A stretch of 63,866 nucleotides of DNA from Patescibacteria group bacterium (GTDB taxonomy: Bacteria; Patescibacteriota; Patescibacteriia; Patescibacteriales; JBAZCA01), in NCBI GenBank assembly GCA_041661405.1, contig JBAZUL010000010.1:1-63866 (forward strand). Direction: 5' to 3'. The notes beneath the pieces were generated by a model, which saw only the letters and a program-made list of their open reading frames with translations, did not search any database and was not told where the DNA came from. Within the stretch, counting starts at the first letter, position 1. Each line of letters starts with the position of its first letter. A program made the position numbers and the translations under genes. Shown piece after piece: positions 29,567 through 36,652 of this stretch.

Positions 29567-29594
29567 ATTATAGCACTTTCCCTTAATATTTCAA
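29567..29594 (-). promoter_or_regulatory. Internal promoter upstream of rplC
   Basis: TTGAAA-16-TATAAT with extended TG. Confidence 0.6.
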
Positions 29595-29641
29595 GTGCCG
29601 AGCGCGTGAGCGAGGCATCCCGCAGCCGAAAGCATGCGGGA
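29591..29641. repeat. 51-nt double-hairpin repeat, copy 1
   Basis: 46/51 identical to 36602-36652. Confidence 0.85.
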
Positions 29642-29691
29642 ACAAAATAAGGGAGTTGCGATAATTATTAAAGCGGCTTAATTTTAAAAAA

Positions 29692-30072
29692 CTACATCTT
29701 TATTTCAACATCCACCCCGGCCGGCAAGGTCAGGCTGGAAAGCGACTCAATAGTCGCGGCTGTCGGATCAATTATATCAATCAATCTTTTATGGATTCTC
29801 ATTTCAAATTGGTCGCGGGAATCCTTATGGACGAAGGTTGAACGGTTCACCGTGTATTTTTTCTTTTCCACCGGCAAGGGGATAGGGCCGAATGTTTTCG
29901 CTCCGCTCCGCTCGGCAGTTTCAATAATAATCCGCGCCGAATCGTCAATAATCTTATGGTCAAAGGCTTTCACCTTGATTCTGATTTTCGGTTTTTCATC
30001 CTGCTTAACCGCCGGTCGGGCGAGTTTGGGATTCACTTTCTTTTCTTCTGGTTTAGTCTTGGTTGCTGACAT
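29692..30072 (-). CDS. rpsJ: 30S ribosomal protein uS10 with an N-terminal extension
   Basis: [32 protein letters not shown]. Confidence 0.97.
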
Positions 30073-30222
30073 TATTATAGGGTGTAGGGATTAGGGGTCA
30101 GGGATTAGGGCTAAAAAATTTCTACCCCCTAATCCTTACACCCTATGCCCTCAAATAAATAAACACTTAAACCCCGTCCAGTCCCGAGACTCCGGGATGG
30201 AGCTGGACAGGGCAAAAAGTAT

Positions 30223-31410
30223 TTACTTCAAAATTTTCGTTACCACTCCGGCTCCAACGGTCCGGCCGCCTTCGCGGATAGCGAACCGCTGTTTTTCTTC
30301 CAAAGCGATCGGGGCGATAAGTTTCACTTTCAGATTAACGGTATCGCCGGGCATTACCATCTCGGTTCCTTCGGGAAGTTCGATTTCTCCGGTTACGTCC
30401 GTCGTCCGGATATAGAATTGCGGCTTATAGCCTTTGAAAAATGGTTTGTGGCGTCCGCCTTCCTCTTTGGACAGAACGTAAATTTCGCCTTCAAAGTCAG
30501 TATGCGGAGTTAAGGTTCCCGTCTTGGCGAGCACCTGGCCTCTTTCTACCTCATCCTTCTTCGTGCCGCGAAGCAAAAGTCCCGCGTTGTCTCCAGCCCT
30601 GCCTTCATCCAGCTGTTTGTTAAACATTTCAACTCCGGTCACGACGGTTTTCATGGTCGGGCCAAGGCCGACGATTTCCACTTCTTCGTTAACTTTGATA
30701 ATGCCTCTTTCAATTCTTCCGGTAACAACAGTACCGCGGCCTTCAATGGAAAAGATATCTTCAATCGGCATAAGGAAAGGCTTGTCAGTATCCCTGACCG
30801 GTTCCGGAATGAATTCGTCAAGAGATTTAATCAAATCAAGAATCGGCTGGGCGTCGTCGCCGGTTGGGTTTTCTAAAGCTTTCAAAGCCGAACCGCGGAT
30901 AACCGGGGTAGTGTCGCCCGGAAATTCGTATTTCTTGAGTAAGTCGCGAATTTCTTCCTCAACGAGGTCAATTAAATCCTTATCTTCAACCATGTCGCAT
31001 TTGTTCAAAAATACGACGATTGAAGGCACGCCTACCTGCCGGGCTAAAATGATGTGTTCCCGAGTCTGAGGCATGGGCCCGTCAGTGGCGGCTACCACCA
31101 AGATTGATCCGTCCATCTGGGCGGCGCCGGTAATCATGTTCTTTACGTAATCGGCGTGTCCGGGACAATCAACGTGGGCGTAGTGCCGTTTTTCCGATTC
31201 ATACTCAACGTGGGCCGTGGCAATGGTAATACCCCGGGCTTTTTCTTCCGGAGCCGAGTCAATCTGGTCCACTGATCTTTTAGTGGCCTGGAATCCTTTA
31301 GCGGCCATCACGTTTAAAATGGCGGCCGTTAGGGTCGTTTTGCCATGGTCAACATGGCCGATGGTTCCGACATTTACATGTGGCTTGGTGCGATTAAATT
31401 TTTCTGCCAT
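30223..31410 (-). CDS. tuf: Elongation factor Tu
   Basis: [29 protein letters not shown]. Confidence 0.99.
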
Positions 31411-31523
31411 AGTAACTTTTGTTCCGGCCCCATACCCTGCGTTTTGCTGGGCAGTGAGTTTTTTCCTTGGAGGAACCAGCCGATGTAATTAAAATTTCTA
31501 AATGTTAAATAATTAAATATTTT

Positions 31524-32132
31524 TTAATAACCGATTTCTTCAAGATAATTCCGACCCGCTCCGATCACTTCGTCCGCCGCCTTTTTCCGGTCAGTCGGGA
31601 TATTCCATCTTTTCGGCTCTTCCCGCGCCGTTTTGGCGTTCTTTGAAGATTCGTTAAAGGGGGCGGCAAAAGACAGCTCATCTTCAGGAGCCTCTTGGCT
31701 CGCCAAATTTCTTTTTCCCTCTCCGGCTGTATTTTCCGGCAAATCCGCTGGTTGGCTTTTTACTCCGAATTCCCTGGCTCTTTCGTATAACTTATACTCT
31801 TCGGGCTCAAAATATAGCTCCTCTTCCAGTTCTTCGTCTTCGCATTCATCATCTTCGGTTTCATCAGAATAATCAGCTTCATAATCGTCCCTTTTCAGGT
31901 ATTCGTTAAAAAATTCCCGTTCACTTTTCCAAACAGCAATATCGCGATTTATTTTATCAAGTAATTCATCTTCTGTCAATCCCCGGACATCCGCCCGCTT
32001 TATCGCCAGCCTTTCATACTCATCCAAGTTTAAAACCACGTACGGATCAGCCGATTTCACGCTGTCAAAAACTAAAAGCCGATCCCCGGTTTTTTTCGCG
32101 ATTTCCATCGCCCTTTGGAGTTGATTTTGCAT
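31524..32132 (-). CDS. Hypothetical acidic protein
   Basis: 202-aa ORF with an Asp/Glu-rich centre, between a promoter and tuf. Confidence 0.7.
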   Translation of the reverse strand: MQNQLQRAMEIAKKTGDRLLVFDSVKSADPYVVLNLDEYERLAIKRADVRGLTEDELLDKINRDIAVWKSEREFFNEYLKRDDYEADYSDETEDDECEDEELEEELYFEPEEYKLYERAREFGVKSQPADLPENTAGEGKRNLASQEAPEDELSFAAPFNESSKNAKTAREEPKRWNIPTDRKKAADEVIGAGRNYLEEIGY

Positions 32133-35428: not shown

Positions 35429-35508
35429 AAAAGTAATACAAATTACAAATCAAATACAAATTTACAAATTATTAATAAAACAATTAACTAGCAGATTTGC
35501 AGTTCGTA

Positions 35509-35976
35509 TTATCTCGCGAAATGGGCGAAAGCTTTGTTGGCTTCGGCCATGCGGTGCACGTCTTCGCGTTTTTTTACGGCCGCGCCTTCGCCGTTCATGG
35601 CGGCTATTATCTCATCAGCCAGTTTCGCGGCCATAGTGCCGCCCTTCTTTTTATCAGCCGAGTCAATGAGCCAGCGGCAACCGAGAGCGAAGCGGCGCTT
35701 GCCGCGCACCTGGAAAGGCACCTGGAAGTTAGCGCCGCCGACTCTTTTTCCGCGGACTTCCAAAAGCGGAGAAACGGCTTTCAGAGCGCGGTTAAAAACG
35801 TGGCGCGGATCCTGCTTGGTTTTTTCTTTAACAATGTCAAAAGCGCCGTAAACAACTTTTTCGGCGATGGATTTCTTGCCTTCAATCATCAAGTAATTAA
35901 TAAACTTGGCAATGTCAACATCATTATATTTCAAGTCCCCTTCAATTTTCCTTTTTGGCGCTGGTTTGCCTCTCAT
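35509..35976 (-). CDS. rpsG: 30S ribosomal protein uS7
   Basis: RVGGANFQVP, HRMAEANKAFAHF. Confidence 0.98.
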   Translation of the reverse strand: MRGKPAPKRKIEGDLKYNDVDIAKFINYLMIEGKKSIAEKVVYGAFDIVKEKTKQDPRHVFNRALKAVSPLLEVRGKRVGGANFQVPFQVRGKRRFALGCRWLIDSADKKKGGTMAAKLADEIIAAMNGEGAAVKKREDVHRMAEANKAFAHFAR

Positions 35977-36019
35977 ATTTATTTAGAATTAAAAATCAAA
36001 ATTATGGGTAATGAATTTA

Positions 36020-36445
36020 TTACTTCTTTGCTTTTTCTTTTTTCGCCCCGTACTTTGACCGGCTTTGTTTCCGGTTGGCTACGCCCTGAGCGTCAAAAAC
36101 GCCGCGCACGACTTTGTAGCGGACACCCGGCAAATCTTTGGTTTTTCCGCCTTTAACCAAAACGATTGAGTGCTCCTGAAGGTTATGGCCGATCCCCGGA
36201 ATGTAAGCGGTAACTTCCATGCCGTTTGAAAGCCGAACCCTGGCGATTTTCCGGAGGGCCGAGTTTGGTTTTTTCGGAGTGGTAGTCGTAACTTTTACGC
36301 AGACGCCTCTCTTAAAAGCCGACCCTTTAGGCAGATCGGTCCGGCGTTTGTGCAGGGTATCAAGAGTGGACTGCAGAGCCGGAGACTTGCTTTTTGATTT
36401 AATTTGTTTTCGTCCTTTGCGGACCAGCTGATTAACTGTAGGCAT
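36020..36445 (-). CDS. rpsL: 30S ribosomal protein uS12
   Basis: [28 protein letters not shown]. Confidence 0.98.
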
Positions 36446-36576
36446 AATTTATTTAAGATATAGGGTATAGGGTTTAGCGTATAGGGAAGAAAGTTGCGGC
36501 TTCCTAAACACTACACCCCATGCCCTAATTGAAAACTAAAAACAAAGCCCCTTTAGGAGCTGTTATGTGTATCAAC

Positions 36577-36605
36577 AATTTAACAAAATTGAAAATAAAA
36601 GTCAA
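36577..36605 (-). promoter_or_regulatory. Promoter of the str operon
   Basis: TTGACT-17-TAAATT with extended TG. Confidence 0.65.
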
Positions 36606-36652
36606 GCGCCGAGCGGGTGAGCGAGGCGTCCCGTAGCCGAAGGCATGCGGGA
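36602..36652. repeat. 51-nt double-hairpin repeat, copy 2
   Basis: 46/51 identical to 29591-29641. Confidence 0.85.

Follow-up and report, generated by a model that had tools for sequence, protein, structure and literature searches.

A short structured repeat lies against the promoters of two ribosomal protein genes, rplC and rpsL, in the stretch of DNA analysed here, a window of 63,866 nucleotides (nt) that is contig C10 of a patescibacterial genome (GenBank JBAZUL010000010.1). This genome, G000 in what follows, comprises 18 contigs and 1.17 megabases, is 98% complete and is placed in Patescibacteria near Falkowbacteria. Few known genomes are as small and streamlined as those of Patescibacteria, and the organisms of this group, the Candidate Phyla Radiation, depend on DNA uptake. 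We compared the window with a sister species (G002), a congener (G001) and an order-wide set of 61 genomes, and built a covariance model, R1, from an alignment of 19 copies of the repeat. The repeats are very probably copies of a mobile DNA element, about 46-60 nt long, non-coding and non-autonomous, that is specific to this small Patescibacteria group. They are best read as a REP/NTS-like mobile hairpin passenger that prefers the upstream edge of promoters, and not as a promoter donor, a transcription terminator or a shared control site. The copies in the window and the sites next to them are as follows.

29594..29641, + strand: copy 1 of the two-hairpin element (R1 70.7 bits, E 7e-17)
29595-29618, + strand: hairpin A of copy 1, stem GTGCCGAGC/GCGAGGCAT with tandem G.A pairs and loop GCGTGA
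29619-29640, + strand: hairpin B of copy 1, CCCGCAGCC-GAAA-GCATGCGGG
29594..29567, - strand: rplC promoter-like site, -35 TTGAAA (29594..29589), 16-nt spacer with TG, -10 TATAAT (29572..29567), 11/12 matches
36605..36652, + strand: copy 2 of the two-hairpin element (R1 69.3 bits, E 1.5e-16)
36606-36629 and 36630-36651, + strand: hairpins A and B of copy 2
36605..36577, - strand: rpsL promoter-like site, -35 TTGACT (36605..36600), 17-nt spacer, -10 TAAATT (36582..36577)
51567-51641: tRNA-Thr, preceding the partial third copy
51693..51731, + strand: partial family relative, stem CATCCCG...GCATGCGGGG with a nested hairpin inside and no hairpin A

Direct reading bears out the similarity on which an initial annotation of this DNA had rested: 29591-29641 and 36602-36652 (+ strand) are identical at 46 of 51 positions, and a 20-mer core of the repeat occurs twice in the window against an expectation of 0.00. 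The compensatory change from T-A to C-G described there is also present in hairpin A (T/C at position 6 with A/G at position 27). The remaining differences are a C/G in the loop of hairpin A, a C/T in hairpin B that turns C:G into T:G on the + strand, and an A/G that adds one pair to hairpin B. Each copy forms two neighbouring hairpins and folds somewhat better on the + strand (-24.4 and -27.4 kcal/mol; z -3.5 and -3.4) than on the - strand (-23.3 and -20.5 kcal/mol; z -3.0 and -2.2), and it is the + strand that is antisense to the genes. The two copies end in GGGAAC and GGGACA respectively, and neither has TCYRG. The repeat is thus real, but its proposed extent of 51 nt is too long for the inserted element, which measures about 46-47 nt: the left-end TCAAG is chromosomal at the rpsL site, where comparison with the empty site of G002 puts the start of the insert at about 36608-36610.

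The third copy reported after tRNA-Thr is likewise real but weak (E = 0.0077 with R1), consisting of a hairpin-B-type stem with a nested insert only. On its left is an unrelated 28-nt palindrome (51666-51693), on its right a tRNA-3'-like sequence, GCGAATCCCACTTTTGGCTCA. At the same tRNA-Thr locus (L042) G002 has two full copies, orthologous to the partial copy of the window. In relatives (L042, L044, L049, L063) the two-hairpin module often stands directly after the 3' end of a tRNA gene, and a tRNA-3'-like stretch (GGGGCGAATCCC ACTTTTGGCTCA; compare window 51726-51750) follows the module. This position, together with the tRNA-3'-like stretch, suggests that the module may have originated at tRNA genes.

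A promoter scan places both full copies next to the -35 box of a sigma-70-like promoter, exactly as had been claimed. The rplC promoter-like site adjoins the hairpin A end of copy 1, and at both promoters the element spans positions -36 to about -85. The genes around the two sites, with their Pfam assignments, are these.

28477-29358, - strand: rplC (L3; Ribosomal_L3), downstream of copy 1
29692-30072, - strand: rpsJ (S10; Ribosomal_S10), upstream of copy 1, stop codon 50 nt from the hairpin B end
30223-31410, - strand: tuf (Pfam)
33350-35428, - strand: fusA (Pfam)
35509-35976, - strand: rpsG (Pfam)
36020-36445, - strand: rpsL (S12; Ribosom_S12_S23), downstream of copy 2
36674-37294, - strand: M50-family peptidase gene (Peptidase_M50), upstream of copy 2, stop codon 22 nt from the hairpin B end

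The two copies are members of a dispersed family. About 28 relatives are found across the G000 contigs by BLAST and nhmmer, and R1 counts 32 copies in G000, 13 in G002 and none in G001, with scattered matches in other genomes of the order (at least one R1 copy in 20 of the 61). The 32 copies of G000 are nearly all intergenic and have the form of short imperfect extragenic palindromes. In the alignment of 19 copies, hairpin A consists of a 9-bp stem closing a conserved G-Y-G-Y-G-A loop, with stem subfamilies GCCGAGC/GCGAGGC (carrying tandem G.A/A.G), ATTTGC/GCAAAT and ATTCGC/GCGAAT. Hairpin B reads CCCGYAGCC-GAA-GGC(R)TGCGGG, encloses a nested hairpin in some copies and is often followed by TCYRG. 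Pairing is kept in 91.5% of the cells of the alignment and eight pairs have changed on both sides; none of 500 shuffles reached these values, and controls with a slid structure were 22-40% paired. Four loci of G000 (C8:41300-41416, C9:8508-8608, C9:8990-9093 and C1:82470-82594) carry tail-to-tail doublets, a REPIN-like arrangement in which the hairpin B ends meet and the hairpin A ends point outward, some of them between divergent genes. A coding full-length form of the element was considered and rejected, the 1.4-kb stretch of G002 at the C8:41300 locus holding an unrelated open reading frame (ORF) of 375 amino acids and no element.

The covariation of both stems would also be expected of a small structured RNA gene or a cis-acting RNA made from the + strand, on which G.T wobbles outnumber A.C mismatches by 14 to 4. 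This excess falls to 7 to 4 without the outermost pair, however, which is too weak to decide the strand. In Rfam the window has only three tRNA matches at gathering scores and the segment 29540-29700 has nothing at E up to 10; a promoter or terminator belonging to the repeat itself was not found. Presence/absence polymorphism and rapid turnover, both described below, are moreover typical of mobile DNA, and we consider an RNA function highly improbable.

Which is older, the repeat or the promoter that it touches? At the rpsL site neither G002 nor G001 carries the element, nor do three metagenome contigs of a third lineage whose S12 protein is identical, and CTTGACT-17-TAAATT is kept in every one of these element-free lineages. 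The G002 and G001 sites read AAGTCAAG (CTTGACTT on the - strand) with the -10 box conserved, and the third-lineage contigs read CTTGACTT-...-TAAATT. Because both hexamers are kept in all element-free lineages, the rpsL promoter must be older than the insertion, and the empty sites in the same three lineages indicate that the insertion is recent and lineage-specific. At the rplC site the element is present in both G000 and G002, whereas G001 lacks it and reads TTGCAA-17-TATAAT; the -10 box and spacer are conserved in G001 and G002. The rplC copy of G002 has a hairpin A identical to that of G000 and a rearranged hairpin B, and two contigs of near-identical strains do not differ from the window at this site. 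These comparisons show the rplC and rpsL promoters to be ancestral and the rplC insertion to predate the split from the sister species.

The leaders and neighbouring genes of the two promoters have features of their own. The rpsJ-rplC spacer (29359-29691 in the window; loci L005-L023) is unusually long across this Patescibacteria order, about 200-670 nt. Between the rplC promoter and the rplC start it holds a terminator-like hairpin, GCTGGTTTTTTGTGTTAAGACCGGC followed by TTTTTTGTTT (29464-29488, - strand), which is almost invariant in G001 and G002 and is a candidate attenuator or ribosomal-protein leader. The rpsL leader contains a second terminator-like hairpin with a T-run (36546-36561, - strand; AGCTCCTAAAGGGGCT TTGTTTTTAG), kept in all lineages compared, and a long palindrome of 7-nt repeats (36455-36530; TATAGGG and TTTAGCG with their complements) that is present in G002 and absent in G001 and the third lineage. 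Between fusA and tuf the str operon, otherwise classical, includes ORFs of 202, 163 and 110 amino acids (31524-33065, - strand) with no Pfam match, and in a related lineage with identical S12 (L184, L185) a HicB/HicA antitoxin-toxin pair directly follows rpsG and replaces fusA.

The age of the promoters bears on the proposal that the repeat donates the TTGA of the -35 box. A portable promoter part, bringing this motif or an UP-like upstream module and so creating or strengthening promoters, would fit the 13-17 of 32 copies in which a -35 hexamer overlaps or touches the element end, as well as the TTG found inside repeat-looking sequence at C8:15696 and C4:85771. Yet at all four promoter-abutting sites with an empty orthologue (C10:36605, C1:66245, C1:36300 and C4:85771) the -35 and -10 boxes exist without the element: rpsL keeps its hexamers in three element-free lineages, and at the other three sites the empty G002 sequence already has both. 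The offset between element end and -35 box varies from -2 to +3 nt, and in about half of the copies nothing promoter-like is seen at the junction. On these alignments donation of the -35 box appears largely refuted, and a portable promoter part is very improbable.

Mobility, which the initial annotation had listed among several options, is by contrast directly visible in the comparison of relatives. When the joined flanks of 27 other G000 loci were searched in G001 and G002 and the matches aligned, about 10 of 29 G000 loci, rpsL included, proved to be filled in G000 and empty in G002, in keeping with the uneven copy numbers of the three genomes. Synteny in sister genomes therefore upholds one half of what had been proposed, the movement of the repeat, and contradicts the other, since promoters are present at the empty sites. 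In nine filled/empty comparisons the junctions are precise, the element starts directly after an A-rich word and no target duplication is seen. The words preceding the insert are GTCAAAT (two loci), GTCAAAA, GCAAAA, GTAAATG, GTTAA, CAAAAAT and ATAAATT, and the landing word shares a microhomology of 3-5 nt with the AAWG at the 5' end of the element itself. There is a single insertion orientation, the hairpin A end always following YAAA(W); the target is degenerate, and the distance from the hairpin A end to GTCAA varies by 0-3 nt.

Seven sites are filled in both G000 and G002. At these sites the element is 49% identical between the two genomes, against 70% for the 100-nt flanks (P = 7e-18), and several shared sites are occupied by different subfamilies; at C1:56150, for instance, GTCAAA is followed by the ATTTGC type in G000 and by the GCCGAGC type in G002. 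This turnover reflects either repeated insertion at a hot spot or conversion between copies, and its speed argues against a selected, site-specific function of the element.

Insertion is nevertheless far from indifferent to its surroundings. A strict promoter motif, TTGnnn-16/18-TAnnnT with the start of the -35 box within -5 to +3 nt of the junction, accompanies 13 of the 32 copies, compared with 2.2% of intergenic positions (P = 7e-14), and four further copies are near misses, so that the promoter spacing expected in the initial annotation recurs well beyond the two window copies. Where the junction contains TTGA, a -10 box follows at 16-18 nt in 11 of 14 copies as against 21% of intergenic TTGA sites (P = 8e-6); with so many correctly spaced -10 boxes, the bias towards promoters exceeds a mere preference for TTGA. 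On the hairpin A side the neighbouring gene presents its 5' end in 25 of 32 copies, a figure that adds the rpsL copy to a script count of 24 after a spurious opposite-strand ORF was set aside. Four exceptions have their hairpin B end 1-49 nt before a tRNA gene, within the tRNA leader and in sense orientation. Beyond hairpin B, 18 of the 32 copies have the 3' end of a gene at a distance of 9-150 nt, and the other 14 the 5' end of one, divergent gene pairs included.

A position between the end of one gene and the promoter of the next, as in these 18 copies, is what one would expect of a REP-like terminator, insulator or mRNA-stabilising hairpin kept for its function, and the - strand RNA does fold stably (-20 to -23 kcal/mol). 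The scan for terminators in the window called neither copy, however, and no T/U run follows the hairpins on either strand: they are flanked by TTGAAATATT and TTGACTTTTA on the - strand and by ACAAAATA and CATGTTAA on the + strand. Since the T-run is absent, the hairpins are not intrinsic terminators, and the copies between divergent genes further weaken a terminating role because nothing there is to be terminated. The 14 copies with a gene 5' end at the hairpin B side, the lack of the element at orthologous sites of close relatives, its faster change relative to the flanks and its better fold on the strand antisense to the genes all speak against such a function, and we consider the upstream terminator or insulator once proposed for these repeats quite improbable.

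The genes downstream of the hairpin A end are functionally unrelated. They encode, among others, RpoB, an aminoacyl-tRNA synthetase, GlyA, RNase Y, RNase J, cysteine synthase, glycosyltransferases and a response regulator, besides rplC and rpsL themselves. A transcription factor binding here could in principle co-regulate the str and S10 units with the other genes that carry the element: its position just upstream of the -35 box is fixed, at the place where class I activators bind, and several of the downstream genes (rpoB, rplC, rpsL, rny and rnj) are housekeeping genes. But the downstream set as a whole is heterogeneous, the element is absent from the rpsL promoter in three lineages and from the rplC promoter in one, and its copy number runs from 32 through 13 to 0 within one genus. 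Four copies are oppositely oriented within tRNA leaders, one subfamily takes the place of another at a given site, and the element changes faster than its flanks. The idea that a shared regulatory site ties the str unit to the S10 unit finds little room in these data, and a common regulator is hardly credible as the reason for the repeats.

What could then bring a mobile hairpin to the edge of promoters? Pairs of filled and empty sites show the element entering immediately 3' of an A-rich word with which its 5' end shares 3-5 nt of microhomology. At promoters this word, read on the opposite strand, forms the upstream edge of the -35 box (ATTTGAC), and hairpin A consequently comes to lie flush against a pre-existing -35 hexamer. 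A second, smaller class of insertions is found in the leader just upstream of tRNA genes. The element may move as a folded single strand or through copying triggered by a nuclease, with a trans-acting enzyme presumably recognising the hairpins; the best candidates for mobilisers would be small GIY-YIG nucleases, which are abundant in this order, and hairpin B, taken with its flanks, looks like the NTS/SRM target of Ssn nucleases. In the ribosomal operons the element would be mainly a passenger, displacing the upstream DNA that is touched by the alpha subunits of the polymerase, while read-through RNA from rpsJ or from the peptidase gene would carry two stable hairpins. Only modest effects on the expression of the ribosomal operons are to be expected from such an arrangement.

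A bolder version of this mechanism would make the promoter itself the target. The element would then be a transposase-less hairpin cassette homing to active promoters, where it would land beside the -35 box on its upstream edge or, in tRNA genes, at the start of transcription. Its folded single strand would insert into DNA opened by transcription-driven negative supercoiling, mobilisation would fall to a bare small GIY-YIG (Ssn-like) nuclease acting in trans, and different subfamilies at one promoter would record repeated independent homing. We regard such a cassette as unlikely. Two small GIY-YIG genes are present in G000.

C1:64414-64662: GIY-YIG gene, 82 amino acids
C2:44310-44549: GIY-YIG gene, 79 amino acids, UPF0213 type

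For these proteins NCBIfam gives only a weak, sub-threshold match; against the PDB they match the UPF0213 structures 1ZG2 and 1YWL, strongly for the protein of 79 amino acids and weakly for that of 82. Three copies of the element lie within 5 kb of the 82-amino-acid gene, compared with 0.28 expected (P = 0.003). This gene, together with one for a metallo-beta-lactamase-fold protein, stands between two identical hairpins, TGTCAATCCCGAGGACTCGGGACTCTAACC, beside a tRNA-like sequence (C1:63450-64800; L071, 513 and 1851). The GIY-YIG loci of relatives carry a hairpin different from the element, TCCCGAGGACTCGGGA, and the same hairpin brackets the 82-amino-acid gene of G000.

Several observations weigh against the passenger reading. 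No Y1/RAYT transposase was detected (PF01797, 0 matches in the 98%-complete genome, where positive controls matched), the canonical 98-amino-acid Ssn-type gene with the motif REKQLKKWxRxWK is absent from G000, and the mobilising enzyme thus has candidates only, the GIY-YIG nucleases. When 12 GIY-YIG loci of relatives were searched with R1, the G000 locus alone was matched, and the homologues of the 82-amino-acid gene are not flanked by the element. The promoter bias could stem from selection on which insertions are tolerated and not from targeting. At rplC, G000 and G002 share 100% identity in hairpin A while differing in the flanks, which could reflect constraint at that one site or recent conversion. 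Finally, the empty sites could in principle be precise deletions, in which case the rpsL site would have undergone three independent losses.

A partly overlapping explanation concerns the nuclease side of the system. NTS/SRM hairpin repeats and the Ssn (SsnA) family of GIY-YIG nucleases specific for single-stranded DNA have recently been described together (Chenal et al., Nat Commun 2025, PMC11893778). The element might be a variant SRM/NTS target of such a nuclease, with its real role in the cutting of single-stranded DNA, for example in DNA uptake or repair, and with its position at promoters incidental. The family consensus, TCAT-CCCGCAG...CTGCGGG-ATCYRG, has TCAT, CCCGC/GCGGG and ATCYRG in common with the Neisseria NTS, CGTCATTCCCGCGMAVGCGGGAATCYRG (PMC11893778); the CCCGC/GCGGG palindrome with (T)CAT upstream and ATCYRG downstream occurs in this consensus and in about 12 copies, while the window copies lack the 3' TCYRG. 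The canonical NTS, searched as TCATTCCCGC-N3-7-GCGGGAATCYRG, is present in 35 of 61 genomes of the order and a reversed control pattern in none. Its presence goes with that of the 98-amino-acid GIY-YIG gene (25, 4, 10 and 22 genomes in the four cells; Fisher P = 2e-5), and NTS-gene-NTS units are seen; the three element copies close to the 82-amino-acid gene point in the same direction. On the other hand, the copies depart from the published degenerate SRM pattern, HGTCWYN(0-2)YYVSBRHN(0-5)WNVSBRGN(0-2)RNCYNB (PMC11893778), because G/A replaces the T of GTC and the loop region is too long. Membership by this pattern was rejected: with and without a relaxed loop its counts in G000 stay at background level (8 unrelated matches against 2.6 in shuffles), and no match is a copy of the family. 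G000 has the most copies yet lacks the 98-amino-acid Ssn-type gene, presence of the element is weakly linked to that of this gene across the 61 genomes (P = 0.10), and the 82-amino-acid gene is bracketed by the different hairpin. The resemblance of hairpin B to the Neisseria NTS/Ssn motif, on which this idea is founded, is therefore a lead rather than a finding, membership of the element in that system is not established, and we treat an Ssn target as possible although improbable.

The NTS survey yielded observations on the order itself. The canonical NTS, TCATTCCCGCG-NNN-GCGGGAATCCAG, reaches up to 33 copies per genome, relatives that carry it including G015, G017, G023, G028, G033, G041, G044, G051 and G060 (loci L194-L199), and 98-amino-acid GIY-YIG genes are flanked by it as NTS-gene-NTS units. 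The only canonical NTS of G000 lies at C12:15185-15210 (- strand), with a degenerate inverted partner, GTCATTCCGGCCAGCGAGCCCGAATCCAG, about 100 nt away and no gene in between; the segment C12:15085-15210 looks like the remnant of an NTS-gene-NTS unit. The paper describing Ssn (PMC11893778) makes no mention of Patescibacteria, and the canonical NTS-Ssn units common in this order would extend the recently described nuclease system to the Candidate Phyla Radiation.

For the element itself, full-text searches of the papers available returned no description of such repeats in Patescibacteria. The case is instructive for annotation, as a repeat common to two ribosomal promoters mimics a regulatory signal where it is very probably a mobile passenger beside promoters older than itself. 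It also reveals a reduced genome that tolerates about 32 hairpin elements without a recognisable transposase, some of them directly against the promoters of core genes (rpoB, rplC, rpsL). The bias towards promoter edges, together with the reuse of sites by different subfamilies, suggests an as yet undescribed mechanism of insertion.

How does the element compare with the hairpin repeats and small mobile elements already known? With the NTS/SRM-Ssn system it has in common a short, oriented hairpin, the CCCGC/GCGGG palindrome with 5' TCAT and 3' ATCYRG flanks, and tens of intergenic copies in a genome with small single-domain GIY-YIG genes; canonical NTS and NTS-gene-NTS units moreover occur in the same bacterial order. 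It differs in the extra conserved hairpin A and in the longer stem and loop of hairpin B, which leave the SRM pattern unmatched. The window copies have no TCYRG, G000 has no canonical 98-amino-acid Ssn gene, and the link to a nuclease is putative.

The likeness to REP/BIME/REPIN repeats lies in the short imperfect palindromes, the extragenic location, the many copies and the subfamilies with compensatory stem changes, and some copies form inverted pairs as REPINs do (C8:41300/41357 and C9:8508/8558). A RAYT gene is typically flanked by REP repeats, whereas G000 has no Y1 (HUH) RAYT gene; the unit of the element contains two different hairpins, and it prefers the upstream side of -35 boxes where REP prefers the 3' ends of genes.

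IS200/IS605-type elements transpose as single strands, have neither terminal inverted repeats nor target duplications and carry hairpins near their ends. The element resembles them in the last three respects and in having one fixed end at a target word, but G000 has no TnpA (Y1) gene, and the fixed tetra- or pentanucleotide target of IS200/IS605 is replaced by a loose A-rich word at a variable offset. Correia elements and other promoter-associated miniature inverted-repeat transposable elements (MITEs) are small intergenic mobile repeats beside the promoter elements of neighbouring genes. The element, too, is small, intergenic, mobile and next to promoter elements, but the promoter hexamers at its sites are the host's own. 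Classification as a MITE was rejected, given the lack of inverted termini, the two different hairpins in each copy and the absence of duplication in the nine filled/empty comparisons. The element spreads within its lineage as short structured DNA, in the manner of REP/BIME and NTS/SRM repeats, and is set apart from them by the lack of a RAYT or canonical Ssn gene, by its two-hairpin unit and by its strong preference for the edge of promoters.

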